This document shows, one piece after another, positions 309 to 23,110 of a stretch of DNA of 64,000 bases. The stretch is taken from the NCBI GenBank assembly GCA_963696385.1, contig CAVOKF010000005.1:1024001-1088000 (forward strand), given 5' to 3'. The translations under genes and the position numbers were made by a program. The notes under the pieces were generated by a model. The model worked only from the letters and a program-made list of their open reading frames with translations, was not told where the DNA came from and did not search any database. Every line of letters starts with the position of its first letter. Within the stretch, counting starts at the first letter, position 1. This stretch comes from an uncultured delta proteobacterium (lineage in GTDB: Bacteria; Myxococcota_A; Polyangia; Polyangiales; Polyangiaceae).

Positions 309-1637
309 ATGCTCGACCGATTCTTGCCTCACCCATCCCCGTTCGAGCGCTTGCTGGCGCGCGGCTTGCGCCCGTTCGCGAAGGTCGAACCGGCGGAGGC
401 CGTCACCGCGTCGGGCATGCTGGTCATCGTGCTGTTGTTGATGACCGCGTATTACTTGCTCAAGACGGCGCGGGAGCCGCTGATTTTGCTCCAGGGCGGA
501 GCGGAGGTGAAACTCTACGCCGAGGCGGGGCAAGCGCTGCTCCTGATCGGGGTGGTGCGGGCCTACAGCGCAATCGCCCGACGTGTCGGGCGACTCAAGC
601 TTCTGGCCACCGTTTACCTGTTTTTCGCGTCGAACATGGTGGTGTTCGCGGTGCTGGCCCGCACCCGGATCCACATCGGCCTCGCATTCTTTCTCTGGGT
701 CGGGATTTTCAGCTACACGTCCATCGCTCAGTTCTGGGCATTCGCCGCCGACATTTACAGCGAGGACCAAGGCAAGCGTCTATTTCCGATCGTCGGGGTC
801 GGTAGTTCAGTGGGCGCGGTTGTCGGCGCGCGCGCCGCAAAAGCGATCGTGCCTTTCGGCGCATACGCACTCATGTACGGCGCTGCGCTGCTCGTGGTCG
901 TGTGTGTCCTGCTGCTGGCTTGGGTCGACCGGCGAGCCCGCGCCGACGATGCGAAGGCTGGAGGTCACGCCAAAGTGCAGCCCGACGAGCCGGTCGGGGA
1001 CGACACCCCTTTGCGTCTTCTCGCCCGCGACAAGTACCTGATCCTCATCGGGGCGCTTACCTTGATACTCAATTGCGTCAGCGGCTTGGGCGATTACATT
1101 CTGGACCGCACCCTGCTCTCGCACCTGGGTGACGCCCGGGCCCTCGGGATGTCGCCCACGACATTTATCGGATCGTTCAAGGCCAGCTACTTCGGCTGGT
1201 ACAACCTCGTCGGCGTCGTACTGCAGCTGTTCGTCGTGTCGCGCATCCTTTTGCGGTACGGCGTTCGCGGGGCACTTCTCTGCCTACCCGTCGTCGCATC
1301 GATGGGCTTCTGCGCGTTCACGCTGGTGCCGGTGCTGCCCCTCATCCGCGCAGTCATGATCGCCGAGCGAAGTCTCGACTACTCGCTGACCAACACCTCC
1401 CGCAACGCCCTGTTTCTCGTCGCGACGCGCGTCGAGAAATACGTGGGCAAAACGCTCGTCGATACGGTCGGCGCCCGATCGGGGGACGTCGTGTCGGCGT
1501 TCGTCGTCTTGCTGGGGACGCGCATTGGAATGCCGACGGCGGGCTTCTCCGCGATCTGCGTGTGTTTCACCGGAGCTTGGATTGCGGTCGTCGTGGCGAT
1601 TGGGGTCGAGCACCAGCGTCGAATCGCGTCTTCCTGA
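309..1637 (+). CDS. TLC/NTT-family ATP:ADP (nucleotide) antiporter-like MFS transporter
   Basis: About 12 hydrophobic segments; motifs YYLLKTAREPL, FFLWVGIF..IAQFWAFAADIY..QGKRLF, ERSLDYSLTNTSRNALFL, KY.GKT.VDT..AR.GD. Confidence 0.8.
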   Translation: MLDRFLPHPSPFERLLARGLRPFAKVEPAEAVTASGMLVIVLLLMTAYYLLKTAREPLILLQGGAEVKLYAEAGQALLLIGVVRAYSAIARRVGRLKLLATVYLFFASNMVVFAVLARTRIHIGLAFFLWVGIFSYTSIAQFWAFAADIYSEDQGKRLFPIVGVGSSVGAVVGARAAKAIVPFGAYALMYGAALLVVVCVLLLAWVDRRARADDAKAGGHAKVQPDEPVGDDTPLRLLARDKYLILIGALTLILNCVSGLGDYILDRTLLSHLGDARALGMSPTTFIGSFKASYFGWYNLVGVVLQLFVVSRILLRYGVRGALLCLPVVASMGFCAFTLVPVLPLIRAVMIAERSLDYSLTNTSRNALFLVATRVEKYVGKTLVDTVGARSGDVVSAFVVLLGTRIGMPTAGFSAICVCFTGAWIAVVVAIGVEHQRRIASS

Positions 1638-1866
1638 AGTTGCATCGAGTCCGCGCGCGCGGGCGGCAGCGGTTGACGAGACGAGGATCCACCTTCACTT
1701 CGGGCGAACCGTCGGAAAAAAAGGGTCGGAGCGCCAGCGTCGGATGAGAACGTGGACCGTCCGGCGCACACCCTCCGTGGGGTCCGAGACGAGCCGGGCT
1801 TGGGTCCCTGCGACGACCCGTCGCAACCGACGTGAAGGGCGCATCAAATTGCGCCGCACCGGAGAT

Positions 1867-1883
1867 GCTAAAAAGTGCATCAA
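1867..1883 (-). promoter_or_regulatory. KdpE-box-like direct repeat (TTGATG-CACTT-TTTAGC)
   Basis: Half-sites with 11-bp periodicity resembling E. coli TTTATA-N5-TTTACA, in an AT-rich island. Confidence 0.45.
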
Positions 1884-2060
1884 GATATATTCGATCGATA
1901 CGATTTCCGCAGTGACGGGGATCGCGCCGCACCGCGCGTAGCCTCGTAATTGAGGCAGTTTGTAGGGTCATGTTTCGAGACCGAGTCCAGATCAAGACGT
2001 GAAGATTGCATATGTTTTAACTCATCGCGCGGCGCCGCATTTACTCCATTGGGGTGCACT

Positions 2061-2077
2061 TTTATCAAATTTTTAGT
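2061..2077 (+). promoter_or_regulatory. KdpE-box-like direct repeat (TTTATC-AAATT-TTTAGT) upstream of porin 1
   Basis: 11-bp spaced half-sites about 160 bp before ATG 2236; extra TTTACT at 2040. Confidence 0.6.
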
Positions 2078-2235
2078 GCCCGATCGCCTACTGTCCACAC
2101 GGGTGCGAGGCCGCTGCAAGACACGGTTCTGTGGTCGGTGAACTCGCCCAGCGGCGACGGCGCCGCCGCGCGTTCTCGCCGGAGGCCGCGCCCGGCGGTG
2201 CGCCGGTGCGCCGCGCCCTCATCAGGAGTATCAAG

Positions 2236-3777
2236 ATGCTTGGCTCGCTCTCTCGCGCTCGTTGCGCGTGGATCGTCGCATTCGTGGTCTGGGGGGCGGA
2301 GTCGGTCGCGTACGCGCAGTCGACCGTTCCGCGGGAGTCGGCGCCAGCCCCACCGGCGGTGCCGCCGGAGCCAACGACGACTCCATTCTCGGCACCAGCG
2401 CCGCAGTCGCCCCGTCCGTCCGAGCCGACGCTCGCCTCCGCTCCCACGCAGAGCACGGCGCCTCTGCCGGCCGGGCCGGCTGCGGCGGCCTCGGTCGAGA
2501 AGCCGGCGGAGCCGTTCGCGTTCGGCGACTTTGCTTGGCTCAACGGGGCGAACCGGCAGCACAAATCGCTGCTCGACAGCGAATATTTCACGGGCAGTTT
2601 CCTGCTCGATGTCAACTATGCCTACGGGTTCAATCGGCCCATCGACGACACGGTCGTCGGATCGACTGCGATCTCTCGATACAACGAGGTGACGCTCCAA
2701 TTTCTCGGTTTTGGCGGGGACTTCCACTGGGGCAACACCCGCGGCCGATTCATGACGCAGTTTGGCACTCGGTCGACGCAGATCCCCCGGAACGATGGGA
2801 GCATCCTTCGCGGGCAGTTCGATCTGGCGACGGCGCTTCGGTACGTGAGCGAGGCATACGGCGGCCACCACTGGGACGTGTGGCACGGCGTCAACCTCGA
2901 CGTCGGCATTTTCATGTCCTACGTCGGGCTATTTTCGTACGCGAGCTTCGAGAACTGGGCGTACCAGCCGTCCTTTACGTCCGACAACACACCTTGGTTC
3001 TTCAACGGCGCCCGCCTCCAGGCATTCCCGACCGACAAGTTCAAGGCGGAGCTCTGGCTCATTAATGGATGGCAGACGTACGGCAAGTTCAACGAGCTGC
3101 CCGGAGTGGGGTTTCAGGTGCTTTGGCGCCCGGACGAGTCGTGGGAGTTCGTCTCCAACGGCTACGTCGGCTGGGACACCCAAGACGACCCGGGCCGGAT
3201 GCGGTTCCACAGCGACAACAGCATCGAGCTTCGGTACTTCAATTCGCCGGGCTCACTGCTTCATCGAGCCGCCTTCTCGGTGACGGGCGACATCGGTGGC
3301 GAGCAAGGCGATGGCGTCACCCCCTTCGGCGGCGGCGGCAAAGAGGGGGGCTGCACGGAATCGACGCCGTGCACGCAGAACTTCGTGAGCGGAATGGTGT
3401 ACCACCGCATGTGGTTCTGGGAGGATCACATCGGGTGGACGTTCGGCGGGGGCACCATGCACAACCCCGGGCGGTACCTCGTCCTTGCGCCCACCGGCGC
3501 GGCGACGCCGGGCACGCCGGTCACGGGGTTCGACATGAGCACGGGAACGAAATTCGACGCGTGGGACGCTTCGACGACCATCCAGTGGATGCCCAATGAA
3601 CTGGAGACGTGGGAGATCGAATATGTCCACCGTGAAGCGAGCGTTCCGTACTTCGCTGGACACGGCGGAGTGACCTCGCCGGATGGATACACGACGACGA
3701 CCGTGCCACGCGGATGGCAGCCGGACCTGGTGCGATCCGAGTCCAAGATCATTGCCGCTCTTCTCATCCGATTTTGA
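2236..3777 (+). CDS. Outer-membrane beta-barrel protein (BBP2/OmpL-like porin), paralog 1
   Basis: RBS AGGAG at 2224 then ATG 2236; signal peptide ending AYA-Q; Pro-rich linker; motifs GIFMSYVGLFSY, YQPSFTSDNTPWFFNG, WLINGWQ; C-terminal IRF beta-signal. Confidence 0.85.
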   Translation: MLGSLSRARCAWIVAFVVWGAESVAYAQSTVPRESAPAPPAVPPEPTTTPFSAPAPQSPRPSEPTLASAPTQSTAPLPAGPAAAASVEKPAEPFAFGDFAWLNGANRQHKSLLDSEYFTGSFLLDVNYAYGFNRPIDDTVVGSTAISRYNEVTLQFLGFGGDFHWGNTRGRFMTQFGTRSTQIPRNDGSILRGQFDLATALRYVSEAYGGHHWDVWHGVNLDVGIFMSYVGLFSYASFENWAYQPSFTSDNTPWFFNGARLQAFPTDKFKAELWLINGWQTYGKFNELPGVGFQVLWRPDESWEFVSNGYVGWDTQDDPGRMRFHSDNSIELRYFNSPGSLLHRAAFSVTGDIGGEQGDGVTPFGGGGKEGGCTESTPCTQNFVSGMVYHRMWFWEDHIGWTFGGGTMHNPGRYLVLAPTGAATPGTPVTGFDMSTGTKFDAWDASTTIQWMPNELETWEIEYVHREASVPYFAGHGGVTSPDGYTTTTVPRGWQPDLVRSESKIIAALLIRF

Positions 3778-3908
3778 GGCCTCCGCAGGCGAATCTGGGT
3801 GAGCCGAGTCGGGCTCGGAGAGGTCCGTGCGCGTAATAGAGGAGCAATTTCTGCGTCGTAGGCTCTGGCGGCGCACCGTAGGCGTCGGGTAATCGAATGG
3901 AGAGCGTC

Positions 3909-4538
3909 ATGAAAGCGGCAATGGACTCTTCGACTTGGATCCGCCTCGGCGGCGTTTTGCTGGCCGTGGCGATTGCGTGCTTGGTCGTTTCGGCCGGCTG
4001 CTCTGCGACGGCCGATGGGGACCGATGCGATCCGCTCCTCAGTCACGACGAGTGTGCGAACTCGCCGACCGAGCAATGCACCTGGATCACATCCACGAAC
4101 CCGGACGGCACGCCGACCCCCGCGAACGCATGTGCCGCCGGCTTGGCATTTTGCTGCGCGCAAGACGCGAACGGCACCATCACGAGCACCTCGGCGAACT
4201 GCCAATTTCTGGCGCAGTGCCAGAAGGCGACGTACTGCCAGACCGACCCGGAGCCGGACGCGGGAGACGACGGGGGCCTCACGGCATTCGTGACCGGGCA
4301 GTTCTGCCGGCTCGGGACCCCCACAACGCCGGAACCCGACGCGGGGTCGTCTTCACCCGATGCATCAGACGGATTTTCCACAGCGGACGCGGCGGACGGG
4401 TCTTCCGCTCTTGATACGGGGTCCTCGGCACCGGACGCGGCAGACGGGTCGGACGCGGCAGACGGGTCGGATGCGGCAGACGGGTCGGACGCGGCAGACG
4501 GGTCTACGCCGGACGCAGCAGACGGTACCGGGGATTGA
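3909..4538 (+). CDS. Cys-rich lipoprotein with acidic DAADGS-repeat tail (partner of porin 1)
   Basis: Lipobox VSAG-C; GDRCDPLLSHDEC...FCC.D.NG.IT...CQ matches the protein at 13249; start could also be 3897 or 3921. Confidence 0.75.
   Translation: MKAAMDSSTWIRLGGVLLAVAIACLVVSAGCSATADGDRCDPLLSHDECANSPTEQCTWITSTNPDGTPTPANACAAGLAFCCAQDANGTITSTSANCQFLAQCQKATYCQTDPEPDAGDDGGLTAFVTGQFCRLGTPTTPEPDAGSSSPDASDGFSTADAADGSSALDTGSSAPDAADGSDAADGSDAADGSDAADGSTPDAADGTGD
4434..4529 (+). repeat. 18-bp coding tandem repeat GACGCGGCAGACGGGTCG (DAADGS), 4 tandem copies plus 1 degenerate copy
   Basis: Read directly from the sequence. Confidence 0.9.
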
Positions 4539-4659
4539 GTGTCCGCGCGGGGGGACCACGACGGCGCAGCAGACACCCGATCCGGGGAGGCGATGAAACG
4601 CCGAGCGCGACCGCGGACCCTGCTGCGCTTTTTCGTGTGGGTGGACACAGATGGGGAAG

Positions 4660-5088
4660 TCATTGGGCGGTCGCATCGGACGGCACGGTCGCATCGGACG
4701 GCACGGTCGCATCGGACGGCACGGTCGCATCGGACGGCACGGTCGCATCGGACGGCACGGTCGCGTCCGGACTGCCGCCGCTGTCCTCCGGGTTGAACGC
4801 AAGGGCCTGGCATGTCGGGACATCGGCCCCGCAGGGTCCGCTGGAGCATGCGTAACCGGGGCCAAGGGACATGGCGCACTCGGTATCGGTGCTGCAAAGC
4901 GTCAGACATTCCTTGCCGAGCCCGGTGCACCCGCCGTCGGTCGAAGGCAACGACTCGGACAGACACCGGAGCCCCGACCCGCAGTCGCCGTCTTCTGTGC
5001 ACGACACGCCTTGGAGCCCGGAGCTACCCGGGCCGCATGCGACGAGAACAACGAGAACGGCGACTGCCAGCGAGGCCGTTCGGTGCAT
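4660..5088 (-). CDS. Cys-rich lipoprotein with DATVPS-repeat tail
   Basis: MHRTASLAVAVLVVLVA-C lipobox; SCTEDGDCGSGLRC and CSTDTEC motifs; upstream starts at 5145 or 5163 possible. Confidence 0.75.
   Translation of the reverse strand: MHRTASLAVAVLVVLVACGPGSSGLQGVSCTEDGDCGSGLRCLSESLPSTDGGCTGLGKECLTLCSTDTECAMSLGPGYACSSGPCGADVPTCQALAFNPEDSGGSPDATVPSDATVPSDATVPSDATVPSDATVPSDATAQ
4668..4771 (-). repeat. 18-bp coding tandem repeat (CGGTCGCATCGGACGGCA on +), 5 perfect copies plus a partial one; encodes DATVPS
   Basis: Read directly from the sequence. Confidence 0.9.
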
Positions 5089-5167
5089 CGCCGCTACCGC
5101 TACTGCGAATGCCGTGAAAGGTCGACTTCGAGGTGAGACGCCCATACGCCAGGCGGTGGTCACCCAG

Positions 5168-5665
5168 TCACCGCCGCCGCGCCGCGAAACGTTGCGCGCG
5201 TTCGACCAGGCGTTGCGCTTTCTCGCGGTCGTCGATCAGGACCGTCACGACGTACCCATCGCCGGTTGAAGTCGCTTTGATATCAACCCATGACCCGGGC
5301 AATACGTAGGGGTCGTCGGGTATCGCTCGGGCGCTGCCGAGGGTGACCAGGGACTCGTGGCATTCGGCGCTGCGCTCGAGCGCATCCGCCGATAGGATGG
5401 CCTTCGGTCGAAAGCGCAAGCGGGCTCCCCGGAGCCGCATGGACCGGTCCATGCCGGACGGGACGTAGAAGTAGGCCGGCTCGACGCCTTCGAGATCCGA
5501 TGTCGAAAGGGCCAGAGCGTCGACGGCCTCGTCGGGGTGGTCGCAGCGCGAAGCGATCTCGCGGGCGCGGTCGACGGGCGTACGCATGTCCGGCCAAATA
5601 GGATTGTACGCGCAGCCCACCCAGGCGATCGAGACACCCGCGATCCAAGGCATCGTTCCGTTCAT
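5168..5665 (-). CDS. Uncharacterised lipoprotein, CH/DPY family paralog A
   Basis: Lipobox WVG-C; RLRGARLRFRP, ERSAECH, IPDDPYVLPGSWVDI, GDGYVV, ERAQRF. Confidence 0.8.
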   Translation of the reverse strand: MNGTMPWIAGVSIAWVGCAYNPIWPDMRTPVDRAREIASRCDHPDEAVDALALSTSDLEGVEPAYFYVPSGMDRSMRLRGARLRFRPKAILSADALERSAECHESLVTLGSARAIPDDPYVLPGSWVDIKATSTGDGYVVTVLIDDREKAQRLVERAQRFAARRR

Positions 5666-5767
5666 GATGCGTCGAGATCCATCGGAGGCGTGCTAGCCGA
5701 TGGTCGCTACGGCGCGCCGACAGGCCGTTTCTCGCGATTACGAAATCTGTCTGAAACAAATACCCGA

Positions 5768-6352
5768 TTATTCGGCCAGCGCGCGCGCTCGCTCGATGAT
5801 CTGCCGGGCGGCTGTAACGTCTCGGGCCGTAATCGCGATGCGGAATCCGTCGCCTGTCGCGGACAGAGCGACGCGCGCGTCGTCAACGAACAAGGGGCTC
5901 GTTCGGTCCGCGACACGGTCGCCGACCACCGCATGGTGGGCCAAATGGCACTCAAGAACGCGGCCCAGTGACTGCTCAGTCATTCCGGGGGCTGCCCGCA
6001 GGTACACGGCGACGCCGGCGGGTTGAAGAATCGGGTCCTTCGGATAAGGGCGTACGCTGAGCGGCTCGATGGCGGCGATTCGGTCGCGACGGGCGAGCGG
6101 CCCCTGGTCGCGGTCGGACTCCGGCACCTCGGCGCATGTGGCTTGTTCGACTTCGCGCAGCCGCTCGGCCGCGGCCCAGTGGCTGTAGGTGGTCGCGCCG
6201 AATGCACCCGGCGGCGACAACCCGTTCGCCGCTAGCTCGTGGTTTTCGGCGGTCGTGCGGCGAATCGAGTCGGATTGCGTGGCGCAAGCGCCTGTCGTGA
6301 GACCCGCGAACAGCGCAGCAAGGACCAACACGAACGAATTCGCTCTCATCAT
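5768..6352 (-). CDS. Uncharacterised lipoprotein, CH/DPY family paralog B (most divergent)
   Basis: RBS GGAG; lipobox TGA-C; GVAVYLRAAPG, GRVLECH, GDGFRI, IIERARAL. Confidence 0.8.
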   Translation of the reverse strand: MMRANSFVLVLAALFAGLTTGACATQSDSIRRTTAENHELAANGLSPPGAFGATTYSHWAAAERLREVEQATCAEVPESDRDQGPLARRDRIAAIEPLSVRPYPKDPILQPAGVAVYLRAAPGMTEQSLGRVLECHLAHHAVVGDRVADRTSPLFVDDARVALSATGDGFRIAITARDVTAARQIIERARALAE

Positions 6353-6458
6353 GAACAACTTCCATCTCCGCGCGCGACAAGGGTTGCAGGGGTGCTCGCC
6401 GTACCCGACACACTAGCCACGAAATACATATTCGATGCGCAAATAGACTGCCTTGATT

Positions 6459-6475
6459 CGTAATGAAACTATAAA
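6459..6475 (-). promoter_or_regulatory. KdpE-box-like direct repeat (TTTATA-GTTTC-ATTACG) upstream of paralogs B and A
   Basis: 11-bp spacing, co-oriented with the gene starting at 6352. Confidence 0.55.
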
Positions 6476-6698
6476 CGCTCGCGAGCGCGCACCTTTGTTT
6501 CGACGCCGCGCGGGTCGCGGTTTCGTGGGCGGACTGGATCCAGACCGGCAGCGGCGTGGATTCGCGAAGTTTCGTTGTCGATTGCGGCGTTCAGCAGATG
6601 AGCGAGAGCTCCGTGAGGGCGCATTCGGGCCTGCGGACCTGCTTGAGAGCGGCTCGGATCACGCGCCATCAACGTGACCCGAGATGCGCCGATGTGCG

Positions 6699-6715
6699 AA
6701 TAAAAATGGGATAAA
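6699..6715 (-). promoter_or_regulatory. KdpE-box-like direct repeat (TTTATC-CCATT-TTTATT)
   Basis: 11-bp spaced half-sites in the divergent intergenic region. Confidence 0.6.
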
Positions 6716-6780
6716 TAGTTGGGGTCTTGTCATCCGGCGCCCGTAATATGGATCGCTTGAGCCCCCCGTCCGTTTCTCAA

Positions 6781-6797
6781 TTTACGGCCTTTTGATT
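6781..6797 (+). promoter_or_regulatory. KdpE-box-like direct repeat (TTTACG-GCCTT-TTGATT) upstream of regulator 1
   Basis: 11-bp spacing, about 67 bp before ATG 6864. Confidence 0.55.
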
Positions 6798-6863
6798 GCC
6801 CGCCGCACTACAAAGAAAAGCGCCGATGATTCGCCGATGCCCCCCCCAGGCTGGTGTTCCGCG

Positions 6864-7571
6864 ATGAATGGGCAGTTCGCCGCGGAGCCTTTGGTCCTTG
6901 TGGTCGAGGACGACCTTCCGCCCGGGCGATCGATCGTGTCCAACCTGATCGGCTTCGGCTTTCGCGTCGAGCAAGCGCCAGCGCGTGTCAGCGCGCTCAC
7001 TCGAGCGGTCGGCCATGAGCCCGACATCGTCGTGCTCGACGCTGTCCACCTGGGCGCGGACGCCGTGAGGTTGATGGCGAGGATTCGCGCTTGGACCGCC
7101 ACGCCTATCGTGGCCATTGTCGACGCATCGCGACCGAGCCAGCGAGGGGCCCTTCTCGACGCGGGAGCGAACGATTACATCGTTCGCCCCTTCGCGTGGA
7201 CGGATCTCGCGGGACGCTTGCGCGTTTGGCTTCGCCAGAAGGGTCGAATGCACGCGCAGCGCTTTGCATTGCACTTGGCCACCGAGCGGCTGCGGATCGA
7301 TCGGGATCGCCGCACCATCGTCGTCGAGGGCCGCGAGGTACACATCACACCGCTTGAATGCAAGCTGCTGCTTATTCTGGCGCACAATCCGGGACGGGCG
7401 ATGACCGAAGACCAGATTCTGGCTGCCGTCTGGGGTCCGAAGGCGTCGCCCCGCGCGCAGTACCTGCGGGCCTATGTACGGCATCTCCGGCTCAAGTTGG
7501 AGAAGGACCCGACCCGGCCGAAGTACCTGGTGAGCGACGCGGGCGGAGGTTATCGATTGAACCTCGGCTAA
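6864..7571 (+). CDS. OmpR-family response regulator, KdpE-like, atypical receiver (regulator 1)
   Basis: Receiver LVVEDD..IVVLD..DAGANDYIVRPF; winged helix ITPLECKLL..VWGP..QYLRAYVRHLRLKLEKDPTRPKYL..GYRL as in KdpE; start 6837 also possible. Confidence 0.85.
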   Translation: MNGQFAAEPLVLVVEDDLPPGRSIVSNLIGFGFRVEQAPARVSALTRAVGHEPDIVVLDAVHLGADAVRLMARIRAWTATPIVAIVDASRPSQRGALLDAGANDYIVRPFAWTDLAGRLRVWLRQKGRMHAQRFALHLATERLRIDRDRRTIVVEGREVHITPLECKLLLILAHNPGRAMTEDQILAAVWGPKASPRAQYLRAYVRHLRLKLEKDPTRPKYLVSDAGGGYRLNLG

Positions 7572-7904
7572 CGCCTGGGCTCTGCGCGCGGCGGACCGTC
7601 CGCGTGTCTGCGGTCGCGTCAAAGAGCGCTCTGTCCGGCGCTGAGCGCGGCATACGGTCTCGGTCATGGCCAATGCAATAATCGCATTAGCACAGCCTGC
7701 GGCCTGTCAACGAGCCGTACATTTCGATACGCGCCTCATCGGCGAATCGATTGGAGTACGAAAACACATAGCCCTCAAACGGACATCTGCGCGAAATGTT
7801 CGTGTGGGATCGGCTGTCCCAGCGGGCCGGCCGAAAGGGCAGCGACGACCCCTTGCCGGCTGCGATTGGGGAGCCCCGCCCGGTCGCGCGCCACACCCGG
7901 CGCC

Positions 7905-7921
7905 AGTAAATAACACGTAAA
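7905..7921 (-). promoter_or_regulatory. KdpE-box-like direct repeat (TTTACG-TGTTA-TTTACT)
   Basis: 11-bp spacing; about 125 bp upstream of the + strand lipoprotein genes but in reverse orientation. Confidence 0.55.
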
Positions 7922-8045
7922 ATGTACGACCAGACCCCCCCGTGCGCCTCGAAATGGCGCACCCGCCCGGAGTAACCTCACCGTTCCGAGGATGGCTTCG
8001 ACCGCGCGCCGGCTCGGAACGGCAAACAAGTCGCGCCTACGCGAA

Positions 8046-8780
8046 ATGTCGCACACCCACGGCCGCAGCGTGACTTTCGGGACCCACTGGCGTGGCGAGG
8101 CCTTGCTGCTCGTGAGCGCGTTCTCGATCGTTGGATGCGAGCCCGATGTGCAGGTCACGAGCAAAATGGCGGCGGACTTCCAACCCGCGCAGCACGCGGT
8201 GTCGGTTTTTGGCGTTTACAAGGATGGGCAGCTGAGCTCCGATTCGTGGGGGGCCGTGAAGGCGCAGCTTTCGCCCGTCTTCGGGGGAGCGATGTGCGAG
8301 GCGGCGTACACCGAATCCTTCATCACCGCGAACCCCGCGCTGTCGGCGGCCATCGCCGACGTGAGTCGCGACAACGGGTTCTCGGACGCCTTGCTGGCGA
8401 AAATCGCGGTCGGAGCCCGCGGCGACCTCGTGCTCGTGCTGACCGTCGCCGGCCAGCTGCCCACGCACCCGAAGGTTTCGCTTCCCAAAGAGGCGGAGTC
8501 GGGCCATCAAGCATCCCCCATGGGACCTCGCTCGACGATGGGGCGTCCCAAGCTGGAGGACCCAAACGCCATCGACTTGGCAGCGACGCTCTTTTCCGTC
8601 CCGGAGCACCGATCGGTTGCGGTCGTGGGCATCCGATACACCGGCCGGAACATCGACGAGGGCGTTGCTCAATTCGTTGCACGTCTCGCCCAAGCGCTTC
8701 CCGGCGCGAGATGCGCGGACTGGAACTGGGCCAACAAGCCGGACGCGGAGAGCGTCCGGCAGACCGCCAACCAAGACTGA
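8046..8780 (+). CDS. Uncharacterised lipoprotein
   Basis: Hydrophobic signal ending SIVG-C; normal globular composition; start 7992 possible. Confidence 0.7.
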   Translation: MSHTHGRSVTFGTHWRGEALLLVSAFSIVGCEPDVQVTSKMAADFQPAQHAVSVFGVYKDGQLSSDSWGAVKAQLSPVFGGAMCEAAYTESFITANPALSAAIADVSRDNGFSDALLAKIAVGARGDLVLVLTVAGQLPTHPKVSLPKEAESGHQASPMGPRSTMGRPKLEDPNAIDLAATLFSVPEHRSVAVVGIRYTGRNIDEGVAQFVARLAQALPGARCADWNWANKPDAESVRQTANQD

Positions 8781-8939
8781 CACGTCGATCGGGGGCGGTG
8801 AACGGGCGCGGCCGAGGGGCCCTGCCTGGTCGTGGATCATCGGGTGGAGATCGCGAGACTGCTGGGTCCCGCACCGCGGGCTAGCCTGCCCAGCCTCTCG
8901 GTTGCGTAACCTTCCGAGCGCCCGGACGTAACCTCCACC

Positions 8940-9470
8940 GTGGGCGTCAACGCAAACAAGGCCAAAGGCAGAGGGGCTTCGCTCGGGGCAATGGTCACCG
9001 CGCTGGGGCTCCTGGCCGGCGCTTGCGCCACGCCGGTGTCCTTGCCCGCGCGCGCGGCGAGCATGGCAGCCAACGAGTGCCGGGATGCGCTGCCCGCGGA
9101 AGAAGAGGCGCGAGCGATCGAGTCGATCCAGGTTCTCGAGGCCCGTCCGAAGTTCCATCAGAACGCGTGCAACGGTGTATGTACGGTCTGGGGCGTCTAC
9201 CTCGTCGTGCGGCCGCCGGGAGGCGTCGATCCCGAGCGCTTCGCCAGGATACTGCGATGCCACAACCTCCGCGTGCTCGACGGCGAGGTGGACGCGTCGC
9301 GGATACCGAACGACCCGTATGGCCTGCGCGACTCGTGGCTCGAGATCGAGGTGAAGCCCGACGCAGGCAATTACATCGTGACGCTGGTCGGCGACCATGT
9401 CTCGGACACGCTGCGCATCTTGCAGAGGGCGAAAGCCTACTCGGCAGCGCACCGGGCGGGAACGCTCTAG
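8940..9470 (+). CDS. Uncharacterised lipoprotein, CH/DPY family paralog C
   Basis: Lipobox AGA-C; GVYLVVRPPGG, ARILRCH, IPNDPYGLRDSWLEI, AGNYIV, LQRAKAY. Confidence 0.8.
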   Translation: MGVNANKAKGRGASLGAMVTALGLLAGACATPVSLPARAASMAANECRDALPAEEEARAIESIQVLEARPKFHQNACNGVCTVWGVYLVVRPPGGVDPERFARILRCHNLRVLDGEVDASRIPNDPYGLRDSWLEIEVKPDAGNYIVTLVGDHVSDTLRILQRAKAYSAAHRAGTL

Positions 9471-9679
9471 CCGCCGCTTCGTAGACGCATCGGCTCGTGC
9501 GCACGAGCGCGGTCATCGCACGGACGGACGGCCTGCCGTCGTCGTGGCGTGGAGCATTCGCCCGCCTGATTCGGGTCGGGGCGGAGGATTGGCGTGCGCA
9601 GTACGGAGGGTGCGTCAGGATCCTGGGGTGACTTCGTCTACGGGCGGGGTAGGCTCCTGGGCTCCTCCGAGGTGACCCC

Positions 9680-10204
9680 ATGGGAATCCATCCGCTAGCG
9701 ATCTCGACGGCGTCCGGTTTGGCCTTTGTGTTCGCGTGCGAGACAGGCGTACCGCCCGCGACGGCTGCTGCTGCTGCAGAGCACGAGCAGTGCGATTCCC
9801 GAGTGACCGCCCCCGCGGCGACGCAGCTCCTGCAGGCGAACGCCGTGCTGCGCATCCAGCCGCTTTACCATCACATCATCGTGAACCCGAACAACGCCGA
9901 AGAGCGGCCCTCCGGCGTCAAACTGGTACTCCGTCCGCCGACCGGCGTGACCGCCGAAGAGCTGACCCGAATTCTGCAATGCCACAGCGCCCGTGTGCTC
10001 CTGGGAAAGGTCAATCCAGCCGAGATACCGGACGACCCGTATTGGCTTGCCGACCGATGGCTGGACATCCAAGTGACACCGGAAAATGGCAACTTCGCCG
10101 TGACGGTATGCGCCGACTCCGTGGACGACAATATCGAGGTGCTAGGCCGCGCAACCCGATATGCGCACGAGCACATGCTTGCCATCGAGGAAAGCATCCC
10201 GTAG
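9680..10204 (+). CDS. Uncharacterised lipoprotein, CH/DPY family paralog D
   Basis: RBS GAGG; lipobox VFA-C; GVKLVLRPPTG, TRILQCH, IPDDPYWLADRWLDI, NGNFAV, LGRATRY. Confidence 0.8.
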   Translation: MGIHPLAISTASGLAFVFACETGVPPATAAAAAEHEQCDSRVTAPAATQLLQANAVLRIQPLYHHIIVNPNNAEERPSGVKLVLRPPTGVTAEELTRILQCHSARVLLGKVNPAEIPDDPYWLADRWLDIQVTPENGNFAVTVCADSVDDNIEVLGRATRYAHEHMLAIEESIP

Positions 10205-10394
10205 CATCCGAGGCATGGACGGCATGGCGCCCGTTCGCCTGGACGCGGCAGGCGTCCTGGCCGGCCCGGGGGGCCCTCGCCCGCGAGTTCGCCCAGGCTG
10301 CGTGTTTCGGAGCGCGGCATCGAGGAACGCGAGCGAATCGCTGGCTCGGCGACGGTGAGGGCGGGGGCCGTCGCCAGCGTCCGCATCGGGTAGG

Positions 10395-11177
10395 TCAGTC
10401 TTTGCGGAGACGATATCCGATCCCAGGCTCGGTCAAGAAGTAGTACGGCCGGGCCGCGTCGATCTCGAACTTGCGGCGCAGCTGGCCCATGTACACGCGA
10501 AGGTACTGCGTGGCGTTCGTGTGCGCCGGGCCCCAGACGGCCATCATGATCTGCTCGTGCGTCAGCACCTCGCCGGCCCTGCGCATCATGGTCTCGAACA
10601 GCTTGTACTGACGCCGCGTGAGCCGCACCTCGTGCCCGCGCACGAACGCCTGGGCCTTGCCGAAGTCGATGCGGAGCGGCCCGACCTCGAGCGCCGAGCC
10701 CAGCGAGTGCGCGCTCGCGCGCTGGCGGTGACGAAGCCACACCCGGACGCGGGCGAGAAGCTCGCCCGTTGCGAATGGCCTCGTCAGGTACTCGTTCGCG
10801 CCCGAGTCGAGCGCCGGGATCTTGTGGTTCTCGTCCTCAGGTTCAGCGAGGATGAGGATGGGCGCATCCGACCACGCCCGGAGGCTGGTGGTGACCTGGA
10901 TGCCGTTTAGGTCCGGCAGGCCGAAGTCGACGATGACGATGTCGGGGTTGTATGCGGTCGCATGCGCGAGCCCCTGCCTTCCGGTGTCGGCTTCGATCAC
11001 GCGCATCCGCTGGTCGCAGAGGACCGTGCTCAGATAAGCGCGCGCGCGTGCGTCGCTCTCGGCCAGGAGAACGAGCGGCGTGACCGCGCGCTTCGCGCGC
11101 GCTTGGACCGGAGGGCCGGACCTCGGGATCGCGTTCGACGGATCGTCGTCCAGAACGACGGCAAGTGAGGTCTGCAT
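10395..11177 (-). CDS. OmpR-family response regulator, KdpE-like, atypical receiver (regulator 2)
   Basis: PDIVIVDFGLPDLNGI..LRAWSDAPILIL..ALDSGANEYLTRPF; VWGP..QYLRVYMGQLRRKFE.D.ARPYYFLTEPGIGYRL; RBS GGAGA. Confidence 0.9.
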   Translation of the reverse strand: MQTSLAVVLDDDPSNAIPRSGPPVQARAKRAVTPLVLLAESDARARAYLSTVLCDQRMRVIEADTGRQGLAHATAYNPDIVIVDFGLPDLNGIQVTTSLRAWSDAPILILAEPEDENHKIPALDSGANEYLTRPFATGELLARVRVWLRHRQRASAHSLGSALEVGPLRIDFGKAQAFVRGHEVRLTRRQYKLFETMMRRAGEVLTHEQIMMAVWGPAHTNATQYLRVYMGQLRRKFEIDAARPYYFLTEPGIGYRLRKD

Positions 11178-11187
11178 GGGATCTCTC

Positions 11188-11274
11188 CATTTTTATCTCT
11201 GATTTGCGCGGAGCGTCGGCATTTTCATCTCAGATTTGCGCAAGCTCGGCGCCACGATTTTCCACGTTTTTGCG
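11188..11274 (+). promoter_or_regulatory. Three direct repeats with ~33-bp period (CATTTTTATCTCTGATTTGCGC / CATTTTCATCTCAGATTTGCGC / degenerate third), each a TTTATC-N5-TTTGCG-like box
   Basis: The first two 22-mers differ at 2 positions; TTTGCG at 11203, 11235 and 11269. Confidence 0.6.
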
Positions 11275-11439
11275 CCGAATCACCGAGGCTCCTCGCGCCC
11301 TCTGTCTCGGCGGCGCTGTTGGAATAACCGCAGAATGCGAGGGCATGTATGTCGTCACGGTTTCGACCGCACGGCGTGGTCGTGATCCGGCCTTTTCCAC
11401 ATTCGCTATCCCAATTTTGATTCCGCCAGGAAGCTACAA

Positions 11440-11456
11440 TTAACGTCTTTTTTATT
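11440..11456 (+). promoter_or_regulatory. KdpE-box-like direct repeat (TTAACG-TCTTT-TTTATT) upstream of porin 2
   Basis: 11-bp spacing; about 160 bp before ATG 11617, the same distance as for porin 1. Confidence 0.6.
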
Positions 11457-11616
11457 TCGTTGCGTCCTAAGGAAGCACTCGTAGCTCACTGAAGCCACGG
11501 GTCGAAGGCCGTCGCCGCAAGGCGACCTAGCCGTCACCGCCGCGGCTCCGGCGCATGAATCCTCACGCGTCGATGGCGGTCCCTTGTCTTCGTCGAAAAC
11601 GCGAGGAGTTCCATCT

Positions 11617-13221
11617 ATGAAACGTAAGTCGAGCCTTCGCAGCCTGCGCTTCGGTACCGTCTTGGGCGCGCTGTCCATCTCCGTGGAGAGCGTGGCGTTC
11701 GCGCAGCCACCTCCCGCCGAGACGCCTCCGCCCGCGGCCCCGCCGCCCGCTGCGGCGCCCGCGGCCCCGCCGCCTGCAGCTGCGGCCGCCCCTGCGCCGG
11801 CGGCCCCCGCAGCGACTGCGCCGCCCGCGGCCCCGACCGGGTTCGCCGCGCCCCCCACGCCTGCCGCGCCCGCCGCTGCGCCCCCGCCGGGCCCGTTCGA
11901 CGGCATTGCCCAGACGGAGAGCCCGCCCTTTGCCCTGGACTTCGGTTGGATCAACGGTACCAGCCGACAGAAGAAGCCTGTGATCGACACGCCGTTCTTC
12001 ACCGGCGAGTTTCTCGTTGACGTCAACTACACCCAGTCCAAGGCCAACCCGATCGACCATACCGTCATCGGGTCGACGTCGATCGCGCGAGACAACGAGG
12101 TCTCACTCGCCTTCTTGGGCCTCGGCGGCGACTTCCACATCAAGAACACGCGTATGCGCATCATGACGCAGTTCGGGTACCGCGCCGTGGAGATTCCGCG
12201 CAACGACTTCAGCACCTTCCATGGGCAGTTCGACTTGCAGAACACGCTCCGATACATCAGCGAGTGGAACGGCGGATACCACTGGGATGTGCTCCACGGC
12301 ATCAACGTCGACGCGGGCATCTTCATGTCGTACGTCGGCCTGTTCTCGTACACCGCATACGAAAACTGGATGTACGTCCCGTCGTATACCTCGGACAACA
12401 CGCCCTGGTTCTTCAACGGCATCCGGACGCAGATCTTCCCGACCGACACCCTGAAGATCGAGCCTTGGATCATCAACGGCTGGCAGTCGTACGCCAAGTT
12501 CAACGACATGCCCGGCTTCGGTGGCCAGGTGATGTTCCGTCCCGTCGAGTGGATCTCGATGAACTCGAACGACTACTTCGGCTTTGACGCCCAGGACCTA
12601 TCGGGCCTTTACCGCTGGCACACGGACAACAGCTTTAACATCCGATACTGGAACAACCCGGGCGCGTCGGTCATCACACGCCTCGCCGCGTCGTACACCT
12701 TCGACGTCGGCGGCGAACACGGGGACGGTGTCGCGTTCTCCGGCAAATCGCCGGAGTTCCAATGCAGCGTCGCAAAGCCCTGCCCGGCGCGCTTCATCAG
12801 CGCGATGACCTACCAGCGCGCCTGGTTCGGCGACCAGTTCGCGGTCACCGTCGGCGGCGGCTGGATGACCAACCCCAGCCGCTACCTCATCCTGACGCCG
12901 ACTGGAAATGCCCAGCCCCTTCCCCAGCCCGAGAGCACGGCACAAGTCGCGTACGTCCCACCCACGAGCCCGTATGACATCAACTTCGGCTCGAAGATCA
13001 CCATGTGGGACTACGAGGCCGGCTTTCAATACATGCCGAGCGACTATTTCACGCTGGACGTCGAGCTGAACCATCGGGGATCGAGCGTTCCGTTCTTCAA
13101 CGGTCACGGCGGCGACACCTCGCCCGACGGCTACATCACGACGCCTGCGGGTCCGGGCTGGCGGGCGGACCTGCAGAAGTCCGACGACCGAATCATCATT
13201 GCTTGGCTGGTCCGCCTCTAA
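11617..13221 (+). CDS. Outer-membrane beta-barrel protein (BBP2/OmpL-like porin), paralog 2
   Basis: RBS GAGGAG; signal AFA-Q; Pro/Ala linker; GIFMSYVGLFSY, PSYTSDNTPWFFNG, WIINGWQ and GHGG.TSPDGY shared with paralog 1. Confidence 0.85.
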   Translation: MKRKSSLRSLRFGTVLGALSISVESVAFAQPPPAETPPPAAPPPAAAPAAPPPAAAAAPAPAAPAATAPPAAPTGFAAPPTPAAPAAAPPPGPFDGIAQTESPPFALDFGWINGTSRQKKPVIDTPFFTGEFLVDVNYTQSKANPIDHTVIGSTSIARDNEVSLAFLGLGGDFHIKNTRMRIMTQFGYRAVEIPRNDFSTFHGQFDLQNTLRYISEWNGGYHWDVLHGINVDAGIFMSYVGLFSYTAYENWMYVPSYTSDNTPWFFNGIRTQIFPTDTLKIEPWIINGWQSYAKFNDMPGFGGQVMFRPVEWISMNSNDYFGFDAQDLSGLYRWHTDNSFNIRYWNNPGASVITRLAASYTFDVGGEHGDGVAFSGKSPEFQCSVAKPCPARFISAMTYQRAWFGDQFAVTVGGGWMTNPSRYLILTPTGNAQPLPQPESTAQVAYVPPTSPYDINFGSKITMWDYEAGFQYMPSDYFTLDVELNHRGSSVPFFNGHGGDTSPDGYITTPAGPGWRADLQKSDDRIIIAWLVRL

Positions 13222-13248
13222 GCGCGGCTTGGAATCTCGGAGATCACC

Positions 13249-13944
13249 ATGAAGCCTACAAAGACTGTGAAGAGCACTTTCATGACCCCGATCCATCTCG
13301 CTCGCCTAGGTGTGCTGCTTGCGGTTGGCTCAGTCGCGCTCGCCCTGGCGCCAGCCGGCTGCATCGGCGGATGGGCCTACGGCAACGTTCCCGAAGGCGA
13401 CCGATGCAATCCGTACGACAGCCACAACGAGTGTAAGAGCGGCCTGGCCTGCACCGTCTCATCGTGGCAAGTGGCCAACCAGGGCCTCGTGTCGGCCCAG
13501 GGAACCGTCGTCCCCTTCCTCACCGCAGGCTCCGGGCCCACGCTCCCGTTCTGCGCCGAAAACTACTGCTGCCCGGTCGACAGCAACGGCAACCTCACGC
13601 CAAGCAGCAACCCGTATTGTCAGGCGGGTTGCAACGGCGGAGCGGCGTCGATTTGCACCGCACTCGGAAACAACACGACCGCCCCTTACATTGGTGTGTG
13701 CGATTTCGCGGATGGGGGTGTGTTGCCGCCGGAGGAGGACGCCGGCGACGGGGGCACACCCGAGGCGTCCGCGGAGGCGAGCACGGAGGCGAGCACGGAG
13801 GCGAGCACGGAGGCGAGCACGGAGGCGAGCACGGAGGCGAGCACGGAGGCGAGCACGGAGGCGAGCACGGAGGCGAGCACGGAGGCGAGCACGGAGGCGA
13901 GCACGGAGGCGAGCACGCCCGCCGATGGAAGTAGCGGAGACTGA
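13249..13944 (+). CDS. Cys-rich lipoprotein with (EAST)12 tail (partner of porin 2)
   Basis: RBS GGAG; lipobox PAG-C; GDRCNPYDSHNEC...YCCPVDSNGNLT...YCQ homologous to the protein at 3909. Confidence 0.8.
   Translation: MKPTKTVKSTFMTPIHLARLGVLLAVGSVALALAPAGCIGGWAYGNVPEGDRCNPYDSHNECKSGLACTVSSWQVANQGLVSAQGTVVPFLTAGSGPTLPFCAENYCCPVDSNGNLTPSSNPYCQAGCNGGAASICTALGNNTTAPYIGVCDFADGGVLPPEEDAGDGGTPEASAEASTEASTEASTEASTEASTEASTEASTEASTEASTEASTEASTEASTPADGSSGD
13774..13917 (+). repeat. 12 perfect copies of the 12-bp unit GAGGCGAGCACG (EAST), coding VNTR
   Basis: 144 bp read directly. Confidence 0.95.
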
Positions 13945-14119
13945 GAGGCACTGCTGACAGCACGAACCGCCGTCGCCTCCCTTGCTATGCGCATGAACGC
14001 GTGCGCGCCCCAGGGGAGGCGATCGCTGGACCCTGAGCGAGCTCTCTGTTCTTTTCGGTGGCGGGTGCGGTCCCTTGCGATCGACGTCGATGCCACTTTG
14101 TGTAACATCCGGACCGCAG

Positions 14120-14646
14120 ATGCGGCGATTCCTTGCTTGGTCGTGGGCGGCATCGATGGCTCTCTCGGGCTGCGGCTCGTGCTCGTGGTTTCCGCTTCTG
14201 CCGGACAAGCGGACGACCGTGGACCACGCGCATGAGCTCGACGAAACGTGTGCGCAGGATGCTGGACCGTTGGCGGCTGATGCGCTTTCTCCCTCCGTCA
14301 TCGAGAGTGTCCAGGCAGCCTATATCCACGTGAACCAGGAGCGGGGGGCGACCTACGCCTGCGCGGTGCGGAGCTGCACATGCGGCCGACGGTGACCATC
14401 CCCGTCGGCGTGCTGCAGCGCGCTCTCGAGTGCCATGAAGCGGCCGTCACGTTGGGAGACGCGCCGGAGCTCCCCGAAGATCCGTACGTCCTGCCTGGTT
14501 CCTGGCTCCAGATCGACGTCAGCGTCACGAACGAGGGGCTGATGGCGGCCGTGCTCACGAACACCCCTGACGACGCGCGGCGCGTCATAGAGCGAGCGCA
14601 CAGGTTCGCGCCCTCCGCGCGTCTGGTGATCGCGCCACGGCCGTGA
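14120..14646 (+). CDS. Uncharacterised lipoprotein, CH/DPY family paralog E, frameshifted in a G6 run (14343-14348)
   Basis: N-part MRRFLAWSWAASMALSG-C..PDKRTTVDHAHEL..C matches paralog A; one extra G joins it to GDLRLRGAELHMRP..QRALECH..LPEDPYVLPGSWLQI. Confidence 0.75.
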
Positions 14647-14718
14647 TGAATCAGGGTCCCATGCGGCCGCGTCGCCAAGGGTGCGCGGGGGACGGGTGTC
14701 GACGAGGGCGCCGAACGG

Positions 14719-15006
14719 TCAGCCCCCTTGCGGGTTCACGCAATCGGCCTGCGCCTGCGGAGGGGCTCCCCTAAACTGGGCATCGCCTCCGGCATCGTTC
14801 GTGATAGTGACCGTGCAGGTGGAGCCCGTTACCACGACGGTGGCCTGTCCGGGCGTCGGGGAAGCGCCGCAGAAGCAAACGGTGGACCCATCGCTCGCGG
14901 TGACGACGCAGCAGGTGTTGAGGGGTGGAAAGGATGCCGCACCCGTGCAAGAGAGCGCACCTACGGAAAGAGCCAGGCCGAACAGCGCGGGGATGCTCGT
15001 TCTCAT
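14719..15006 (-). CDS. Small Cys-rich lipoprotein (95 aa)
   Basis: MRTSIPALFGLALSVGALS-C; TCC, CFC and two further Cys. Confidence 0.65.
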   Translation of the reverse strand: MRTSIPALFGLALSVGALSCTGAASFPPLNTCCVVTASDGSTVCFCGASPTPGQATVVVTGSTCTVTITNDAGGDAQFRGAPPQAQADCVNPQGG

Positions 15007-15580
15007 CGCAGACCATCTTGCCCCATGGAGTTCGGGTTCGCCAAGGCTCTCGCCCGAGCCCCGTGAGGCCTGCCTCTCGGTCTCCCTGTTCCCTGCGCGA
15101 TTCGCCCGGACCCGAGGGGCCATGGATCTTCGATGGGCTTTCTGGCGCTCCGGAAGTTCGTCGACAGAAGCGAAAGCAGCAAGCACGAGGGGTGGCCCCA
15201 TGGAAATTGGGAATGGATATGAGTCATGGGTGGATTATCAAGTTTCACTTGGGCGCGGTTCGCGGCCGACGTCCACGGGAGCGGTGAGTGCCGCGTGGGT
15301 CGGCGTTCGCATCTTTTTTTCTGCCGTCCCGAAGCACTCGTAAACGGCGTGCAGCCTTCGGGGCCGCGACGTTGGCCAGGGCCACGGACGACTCCCGCGC
15401 GGGCAGCTCAGGGAAAGCCACCCGTCGCTGACCCCGACCGGTAAGCGAACGCCCATCTCGCGCGTGGCGAGGACAACGGGCGGTAGCGTGTGGACGCTGG
15501 CGGCGGGGGGGCCCTTGACGAAGGGCCCGTGCCTCGGCGAAGCTTACTCTTCATACGTTCGGGCGCGCGGGGCAGTGTGC

Positions 15581-22900: not shown

Positions 22901-23110
22901 TCCTTCGATCTTGTCGGTCAGCTCCGTCTCGATCTCCTCGGGGGCCGCGCCGTTCTCGGTCGTCGTCACGACGATGGCGGGGAAATCGATCTTGGGGAAC
23001 TGGTCGACCCCGAGCGAGAAGTAGCCGAAGGCGCCGATCACGATGAACACCAGCATCAGCACCCAGGTGAAGACCGGTTGCCGGATGCACAGCGACGCGA
23101 GCCATTGCAT
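19928..23110 (-). CDS. RND (AcrB/AcrD/AcrF family) efflux permease with 3 apparent +1 frameshifts (~22857, ~21042, ~20358)
   Basis: [51 protein letters not shown]; the pieces join when one base is removed at each site. Confidence 0.9.

Follow-up and report, generated by a model that had tools for sequence, protein, structure and literature searches.

Why would two KdpE-like response regulators be located, with no adjacent histidine kinase or potassium pump, in a run of genes that otherwise encode exported proteins? This question is raised by a 64,000-nucleotide stretch of the genome of an uncultured Polyangiaceae bacterium (assembly GCA_963696385.1, contig CAVOKF010000005.1, positions 1,024,001 to 1,088,000; hereafter, the window), in which 14 genes between positions 2236 and 15006 encode two porins, ten lipoproteins, and two OmpR-family regulators (RR1 and RR2). 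Open reading frames (ORFs) of the window, which has a GC content of ~65%, were sorted by third-position GC and their translations were then read; by eye, 12 of the 14 products present export signals (i.e., a signal peptide in both porins, and a signal peptide with a lipobox cysteine in all ten lipoproteins). This count, as well as the gene order and strands, agrees with a first-pass annotation made from the sequence alone, which had proposed a co-regulated envelope system sharing one operator motif. Based on sequence comparisons, we consider it slightly better than an even chance (roughly 55%) that the cluster belongs to the Kdp (potassium-limitation) regulon, as a branch that has been multiplied and dispersed and would raise cation flux across the outer membrane.

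Operator boxes in the cluster and at kdpFABC

The intergenic regions of the cluster contain T-rich hexamers 11 bp apart. Throughout the 6.9-Mb genome, TTTA-N7-TTTA was found 18 times at this 11-bp period, as compared to 2–11 times at each of the periods 7–10 and 12–19, more often than chance would give. Three of these 18 sites are in the cluster (window positions 2061, 6701, and 7907); the others include sites in the kdpF promoter (C6:316870), upstream of a kdp-linked KdpE paralog (C6:318232), and upstream of a regulator gene (RR3) and a porin gene (porin3) on contig C7, as well as three sites around a kinase cassette (C5:1159–1166 kb). Here and below, C-numbers designate contigs of this genome, L-numbers loci of related genomes (except L037 and L038, which are from the genome itself), and X-numbers sequencing runs. 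As the first-pass annotation had stated, kdpD and kdpFABC are outside the window; contig C6 carries them, together with two KdpE-like genes, of which one is upstream and the other follows kdpD. The cluster box matches the Escherichia coli KdpE site in hexamers and in spacing, the E. coli half-sites being given as TTTATA and TTTACA, 5 bp apart (PMC3264566). Because the kdpF promoter carries the same box, KdpE itself should reach the boxes of the cluster.

The same period was found in related genomes. A profile of the lipoprotein family with five members in the cluster (designated A–E) brought 36 related loci from species genomes, all of them from metagenome-assembled genomes of Polyangiaceae/Myxococcales except one labelled Acidimicrobiales. 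These loci (503 kb) contain 45 sites at 11 bp and 2, 3, 5, 0, and 1 sites at periods of 9, 10, 12, 13, and 14 bp, respectively, some sites being counted twice since L004 and L016, as well as L002 and L032, overlap; for 33 of the 45 boxes, a porin, regulator, kinase, A–E-family, or kdpA ORF follows at a distance between −50 and +700 nt. With a box weight matrix trained on other genomes only, seven window sites presented a score >16 (of 30 such sites in the genome), and the regions upstream of porin1, B/RR1, LP8, and RR2/porin2 ranked in the top 0.04–0.2% of 5242 crude gene calls; operon-internal and flanking genes presented scores at background.

The first gene of each transcription unit is preceded by a KdpE-type box. 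Upstream of porin1 (2236..3777, plus strand), the box TTTATC-N5-TTTTAG (2056..2080, plus strand; score 27.4; top 0.06% of the 5242 upstream regions) is located 156 nt before the gene, and all 25 of its bases are kept in L001, a locus syntenic with the whole cluster, in a region that is 78% identical overall; a weaker box (1864..1888, minus strand; score 17.8) is kept at 20 of 25 bases, about the level of the surrounding intergenic DNA. The divergent region between B and RR1 (RR1, 6864..7571, plus strand) contains the highest-scoring box of the genome (6696..6720, minus strand; score 29.1; 20/25 in L001) and a second box-like site before RR1 (6776..6800, plus strand; score 18.1), which is kept at 25/25 in a region that is 69% identical. 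The box before LP8 (7902..7926, minus strand; score 25.9; 22/25 in L001) is ~125 nt upstream of the gene. Between RR2 (10395..11177, minus strand) and porin2 (11617..13221, plus strand), two 22-bp direct repeats, each reading TTT(A/C)-N7-TTTG, are found next to the RR2 start (11187..11241, plus strand; repeats at 11188–11209 and 11220–11241), the first being kept at 24/25 in L001 and the second missing there; a box-like site (11435..11459, plus strand; score 22.1; top 0.2%; 24/25 in L001) is located 158 nt upstream of porin2. Overall, five of the seven window boxes are kept at 22–25 of 25 bases in L001, where intergenic DNA is 69–83% identical, and two are at background.

High-scoring KdpE-type boxes were also found far from porin and A–E genes (C4:790173, C5:1196930, C8:654093, C8:165610, and C5:331424), one of them 195 nt ahead of the gene that follows an AcrB-like gene; these boxes may represent extra regulon members or chance matches.

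Porin–lipoprotein modules in and beside kdp operons

The core module consists of a BBP2 barrel and a small disulfide-rich lipoprotein (CysLP) with a polyanionic tail, often preceded by an A–E-family lipoprotein, and related genomes place this module in or beside kdpFABCDE. A porin gene followed by a CysLP gene was found in L001–L005, L008, L014, L024, L030, L033–L035, L047, and L054. In L027, L030, and L033, kdpD-kdpB-kdpA is divergent from an A–E-family gene followed by a porin and a CysLP gene; in L018, fragments of A–E genes, a porin piece, an RR2-like gene, and a short kinase-like ORF are found ~6 kb from kdpAB. An even sample of 151 Myxococcota genomes included 66 with BBP2, 27 with kdpA, and eight with the A–E family; 16 of the 27 kdpA genomes also presented a BBP2 match (one weak), and in nine of the 27 a BBP2 porin is ≤5 kb from kdpA, in eight of these nine either adjacent or within the operon. 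The porin is the first gene ahead of kdpABCDE in L045, L046, L048, L050, L051, and L052, while L047 contains a porin of the window subfamily (E 2.6e-250) followed by a CysLP gene and kdpABCDE, L049 contains kdpABC, a porin gene, and kdpD, in this order, and L053 contains a porin gene 4.2 kb upstream. In Myxococcota family f17 (L054 and L055), an A–E-family gene is found directly before the porin gene. The same gene families thus occur together across 36 + 12 loci, including more distant Myxococcota, as the first-pass annotation had anticipated; the potassium link that it had suggested is supported by the operator at the genome's own kdpFABC promoter and by porin, CysLP, and A–E genes in or beside kdp elsewhere. 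In a quick porin tree (Shimodaira–Hasegawa-like approximate likelihood ratio test [SH-aLRT], midpoint root), kdp-adjacent porins are found at several depths, including clades beside that of porin2, a pattern that would fit an ancestral kdp link followed by duplication, with no claim being made as to the order of events.

Internal duplication and divergence, which had also been proposed, can be followed through the rest of the genome, which contains four BBP2 genes (the genome-wide search recovering both window porins), three porin–CysLP pairs, 13 A–E-family matches, and eight KdpE-like regulators. The proposed unit extends beyond the 13-kb stretch, as further parts are found elsewhere in the genome, namely kdp itself, a cassette with a DUF4118 kinase, and a third module. 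The third module, on C7, consists of porin3, CysLP3, and a gene in which an A-like domain is fused to a methyltransferase domain, followed by two D-like genes and RR3. The fusion gene (C7:1205019-1206536; L038:7019-8536, minus strand) encodes an exported-looking protein of 505 residues with an A-like domain and a class-I SAM methyltransferase domain; the same fusion gene was found in L034 (E 4e-238).

Both window porins passed the gathering score of BBP2 (PF07642; 26.2 bits), with 124 bits (E 1e-35) for porin1, which has an ortholog in L001, and 114.9 bits (E 6e-33) for porin2. Each contains a ~100-residue Pro/Ala-rich spacer (Pro/Ala/Thr-rich in porin1) between the signal peptide and the barrel. 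The Cys-rich lipoprotein gene follows after 131 nt in the case of porin1 (CysLP1, 3909..4538, plus strand) and after 27 nt in the case of porin2 (CysLP2, 13249..13944, plus strand). The CysLP domain contains eight conserved cysteines (EGDRCNP..SHNEC..C..FCPENYCCP..NPNCQPGCNGG..IC) and is followed by a Ser/Thr-rich repeat tail, made of acidic DAADGS repeats in CysLP1 and of (EAST)n in CysLP2; these tails, of 59 and 66 residues, respectively, each contain 16 acidic and no basic residues. No Pfam family was found in a scan of 19 CysLP members, CysLP1 included, and when the porin, A–E, and CysLP alignments were used as profiles against the PDB, no match had an E below 0.2. Low-complexity segments of CysLP1 and porin2 differ in length among runs: in the run X1 contig, the DAADGS tail of CysLP1 is shorter by one 18-nt unit (window position 4432), and in the run X8 contig, the Pro/Ala-rich spacer of porin2 is longer by 12 nt (window position 11781).

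The first-pass annotation had envisaged lipoproteins as partners of the barrels. A complex was predicted for the porin2 barrel (residues 100–534; 21-row alignment) and the CysLP2 domain (residues 39–170; 19-row alignment), yielding interaction prediction scores from aligned errors (ipSAE) of 0.24, 0.74, and 0.52 (median 0.52; best of three controls, 0.00); at least 38% of the contacts were common to the runs, and the partner presented a predicted local distance difference test score (pLDDT) of at least 50. In the benchmark of the ipSAE mark, 116 of 157 solved complexes and two of 215 mismatches passed, and the range ≤0.60 included only 18 of the passing solved complexes and both passing mismatches. 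This prediction gives the partnership weak support; considering the near-constant adjacency of porin and CysLP genes alongside it, CysLP2 likely binds the porin2 barrel.

Lipoproteins A (5168..5665, minus strand), B (5768..6352, minus strand), C (8940..9470, plus strand), D (9680..10204, plus strand), and E (14121..14646, plus strand) had been described as five paralogous novel lipoproteins, and phmmer searches and an alignment confirmed that they form one family, with no Pfam entry and with B as its most divergent member. Invariant residues, in the numbering of D (the reference for the family alignment and structure model), are R85, R97, C101, H102, G109, and P120. At E ≤ 0.001, the A–E profile retrieved 912 clusters (50% identity) from a set of 1.84 billion representatives; named relatives were all Myxococcota "hypothetical proteins", and a search of the ESM Atlas with D likewise gave only Myxococcota "hypothetical protein" clusters. 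The AlphaFold2 (AF2) model of D presented a pLDDT of 81.5, and a Foldseek search of the PDB with this model gave nothing at E ≤ 0.001. The ArgR C-terminal domain was considered as a fold relative and rejected, as its best Z of 5.0 (root-mean-square deviation of 2.9 over 78 residues; VIA-align) is within the range of noise. Dispersed A–E copies on C8, C4, C1, and C3 have no porin or regulator among their neighbours, and a box-like site (score 14.9) was seen only at the copy on C1.

The reading frame of E begins at 14121. Compared with L001, where E is intact, a G run near 14337 is one nucleotide short and interrupts the frame; the gene was read across this 1-nt gap. A 1044-nt contig from an independent DNA run (X4) contains an extra G in E and presents no other difference from the window; because this contig restores the frame and reads E intact, the interpretation of E as a short gene or pseudogene was rejected. 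Three other genes are split over two overlapping frames, namely the AcrB-like gene (19928-22917, minus strand), kdpD (C6:309313-312052), and porin3 (C7:1207364-1208984). Since several genes are split and run X4 is without the E frameshift, these frame breaks probably represent assembly (homopolymer) indels or strain variants rather than decay.

The remaining lipoproteins of the cluster include LP8 (8049..8780, plus strand), which is without a known family and heads the LP8-C-D unit; it was found in six of the 36 related loci and has one paralog in the genome, on C7, with no porin or regulator neighbours. One base at window position 8816, in the non-coding LP8-C spacer, is missing in contigs of runs X1, X4, and X8. 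A Cys-rich lipoprotein with a PSDATV-repeat tail (4660..5085, minus strand), syntenic in L001, belongs to the minus-strand unit headed by B and continued by A; it scored 17.1 bits against TIGR04201 (Myxo_Cys_RPT), below the cut-off of 25 bits, and CysLP1 and CysLP2 presented no match to this model. A small Cys-containing lipoprotein gene without an upstream box (14719..15006, minus strand) is present in L001–L004 and L035. None of the ten lipoproteins presented a match above cut-off in Pfam or NCBIfam. On the left, the cluster is flanked by a TLC-like membrane protein gene (309-1637), syntenic in L001 and without a box, whose match to the TLC ATP/ADP transporter family is weak though above cut-off (29.9 bits vs. 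21); on the right, it is flanked by a Ser/Thr kinase gene (15464-17263), also without a box.

The stretch is present, in part or whole, in 20 runs from 14 studies (soil, peat, wetland, and plain metagenome), and the related genomes and runs are from peat, wetland, and soil. Metatranscriptome contigs of run X20 cover, with no differences, positions 4839-5033 (Cys-rich lipoprotein), 6016-6396 (5′ part of B and upstream region), and 6452-6676 (spacer between B and RR1); RNA contigs with 5–19 differences, probably from relatives, cover RR1, D, RR2, and the porin2/CysLP2 junction. When relatives are included, contig depth in the RNA library peaks over porin2. Since genes cannot be ranked from contigs, and since DNA may be present in an RNA library, these data provide only a hint that the cluster genes are transcribed in situ.

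Regulators, kinase input, and alternative explanations

Both RR1 and RR2 contain Response_reg and Trans_reg_C domains above the Pfam cut-offs, and their best NCBIfam match is KdpE (NF007820), with 156.3 and 197.4 bits, respectively, below the 325-bit equivalog cut-off. Their description as orphans holds, as none of the 74 histidine-kinase-like ORFs of the genome is inside the window. The phospho-acceptor Asp is retained in RR1–RR4 and in the kdp-linked paralog; in the RR1 receiver, which retains this Asp, Val replaces Ser/Thr and Arg replaces Lys. Canonical receivers were found in RR3, in the kdp-linked KdpE paralog, and in 10 of 13 members of the RR2-like clade. The recognition-helix region, with the stretch TQY[LV]RVYM..LR.K.E, is nearly identical in the kdp-linked paralog, RR2, and RR3; RR1 and RR4 present slight differences.

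The likely source of kinase input for orphan RR1 is a cassette located 72 kb past the end of the window (C5:1159838-1165062; L037), the kinase itself being given as 125 kb away. This cassette encodes a DUF4118-HisKA-HATPase kinase (C5:1159838-1161433), RR4 (the closest RR1 paralog), RR5 (RR2-like), a soluble HisKA-HATPase protein of ~300 residues, and an A–E-family protein, and it contains at least three KdpE-type boxes. An RR2-like gene divergent from an RR1-like-kinase cassette was also found in L005, L007, L008, L014, L024, L031, L032, and L036. In four loci (L007, L014, L031, and L036), an A–E-family gene directly follows the DUF4118 kinase gene, which would fit a role of the lipoprotein in sensing. 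A KdpE-type box is located exactly at the start of a ~300-residue kinase-like ORF beside CysLP in L005 (11799), L006 (11839), L018 (8058), and L024 (1709); this recurrence suggests that a soluble mini-kinase regularly belongs to the regulon.

Under the Kdp-regulon reading, K+ scarcity would lead KdpD and/or the KdpD-like DUF4118 kinase to activate KdpE and its paralogs, whose binding to the boxes would turn on the operons of porins and lipoproteins along with kdpFABC; the channels would increase the flux of K+ (cations) to the periplasm, feeding the inner-membrane pump, while the acidic lipoprotein tails may concentrate cations near the pore and the A–E lipoproteins may represent accessory or sensing parts. 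Only tentatively can this be extended to a dedicated three-part outer-membrane K+-scavenging device upstream of KdpFABC, composed of the BBP2 channel, the disulfide-rich polyanionic lipoprotein, and the A–E lipoprotein. In such a device, the polyanionic tail would concentrate cations at the pore and the A–E lipoprotein would gate the channel or report periplasmic K+ to the sensor-less KdpD-like kinase; its multiplication in peat Polyangiaceae (three channels, 13 A–E genes, and eight KdpE paralogs) would be an adaptation to K+-poor, acidic water.

Several observations weigh against a branch of the Kdp regulon that serves potassium uptake. Among the nine sequences of the RR1-like clade, the receiver Lys is missing in all nine and the Ser/Thr in eight (one member is without the Asp too), and window RR2 carries Ala and Arg at the positions that are Ser and Lys in its L001 ortholog, to which it is 91% identical; because the receiver Ser/Thr and Lys are replaced in RR1 and RR2, one or both window regulators may be phosphorylation-independent or impaired. 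The DUF4118 kinase corresponds to a KdpD from which the KdpD, Usp, and GAF parts are missing, so that it may sense something other than K+. None of the three porin–Cys-lipoprotein modules of the genome adjoins kdp, and 50 BBP2 genomes of the phylum sample are without a kdpA match, indicating that the BBP2 family is not K+-specific. The invariant A–E residues (two Arg and a Cys-His) suggest no K+ site, and the best Z of 5.0 leaves the A–E family with no clear fold relative. The AF2 porin model (~17 strands) is poor (mean pLDDT 50.8), the score of the porin2–CysLP2 complex is weak and differs between runs, and the transcript contigs come from a single library.

Some of these features would also suit the main alternative, i.e., the same architecture responding to another signal, with the KdpE paralogs and the truncated DUF4118 kinase sensing acid, an osmotic cue, NH4+, or Mg2+ and the modules serving that response. 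The absence of the KdpD N-terminal sensor from the cassette kinase, the conservation of the atypical receiver in the RR1-like clade, and the detachment of the window modules from kdp all point in this direction, as do the peat, wetland, and soil sources, considering that K+ uptake is discussed as acid resistance in acidophiles (PMC9543262, PMC7231039). We nevertheless regard another signal as rather unlikely, since the boxes are the same as that of the genome's own kdpF promoter, the same porin subfamily and CysLP are found inside a kdp operon (L047) and beside kdp (L027, L030, and L033), and RR2 and RR3 match the kdp-linked paralog in their recognition helices. Such a signal is hard to separate from K+ here, given that acid resistance is among the roles discussed for K+ uptake (PMC9543262).

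Envelope remodelling rather than uptake appears improbable. In this view, Kdp-type stress would induce outer-membrane proteins that are structural or protective (e.g., in charge buffering or envelope stabilising) and have no part in solute flux. While 10 of the 14 genes encode lipoproteins without a transport-related family, surface or linker material is suggested by the Pro/Ala-rich spacers and by the length and the acidic, Ser/Thr-rich make-up of the tails, and the BBP2 substrate is given as not demonstrated in PMC4827864, the porin heads kdpABCDE in six loci and precedes CysLP and kdpABCDE in a seventh, a position expected of a step in the pathway of the pump, and BBP2 groups with OprB/Opr-type channels in a published family analysis (PMC4827864). 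Strongly disfavoured is the absence of any functional unit, i.e., unrelated exported neighbours with T-rich repeats that would be nothing more than the usual AT-rich DNA of promoters in a high-GC genome. At 65% GC, promoters are expected to contain AT-rich tracts, and a sigma-70/terminator scan of positions 1600-15500, uninformative for this organism, gave two promoter-like sites vs. 1.6 expected and 15 terminator-like sites vs. 9.0; however, the 11-bp period is specific in the genome (18 vs. 2–11) and in the related loci (45 vs. 0–5), the kdp promoter carries the box, box conservation in L001 is above background, and the gene families recur together across the 36 + 12 loci.

Relation to known systems and implications

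The cluster resembles the E. coli KdpD/KdpE system and its kdpFABC operator in having OmpR-family regulators closest to KdpE and hexamers 11 bp apart, start to start. It differs from this system in that RR1 and RR2 are under the equivalog cut-off, have no adjacent kinase or pump, and deviate at the receiver Ser/Thr and Lys, as well as in the presence of eight paralogs and of predicted targets that are outer-membrane and lipoprotein genes; to our knowledge, the E. coli KdpE regulon is essentially kdpFABC alone. A similar logic is found in Pseudomonas, where PhoB controls the outer-membrane channels OprP/OprO: an OmpR/PhoB-family regulator, direct-repeat boxes, and a specific channel switched on with a high-affinity inner-membrane transporter. 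In the system predicted here, by comparison, a monovalent cation would be the substrate, and lipoproteins accompany the channel as its putative partners. RcsF, a lipoprotein paired with OmpA/OmpC/OmpF barrels, offers a parallel for a small lipoprotein encoded with, and possibly bound to, a barrel; no homology to these pairs was seen, as the lipoproteins presented no Pfam, NCBIfam, or PDB match.

The window porins pass the Pfam cut-off for BBP2 (PF07642, TCDB 1.B.66), a family whose function is listed as unknown (PMC4827864). A BBP2 gene downstream of kdpABC has been noted in Leptospirillum (PMC7231039), and the adjacency to kdp found here in nine of 27 kdpA-bearing Myxococcota genomes is of the same kind; the system is thus undescribed, as had been claimed, with regard to its two lipoprotein families, while BBP2 beside kdpABC is already in print. 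Compared to other BBP2 proteins, the window subfamily is distinguished by its ~100-residue Pro/Ala-rich spacer and its obligate downstream Cys-rich lipoprotein, and it is triplicated and detached from kdp. A literature search, with supplements outside its scope, found no study of a Kdp-linked porin, the CysLP family, or the A–E family; searches on potassium-selective porins found none, and searches on kdp with porins and on K+ limitation or the KdpE regulon found only the passing Leptospirillum remark. The part at hand of a preprint on the Caulobacter KdpE regulon mentions no porin.

The regulon follows a familiar logic, but no earlier description was found of the outer-membrane module, of the lipoprotein families that belong to it, or of the expansion of the regulators. 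K+ uptake at the inner membrane is textbook knowledge (Kdp, Trk, and Kup), and the crossing of the outer membrane by K+ at micromolar levels is usually ascribed to general porins. In one phylum, BBP2 is now seen as a frequent member of kdp operons, accompanied by two families of lipoproteins that are without a name in any database, and the operator sites provide a simple handle on the predicted regulon. The expansion in peat and wetland Polyangiaceae also provides a tangible marker, at the genome level, of adaptation to acidic habitats that are poor in nutrients. If the three-part device tentatively proposed above exists, the entry of K+ through the outer membrane would be a regulated and specific step in these bacteria, and not passive leakage via general porins.

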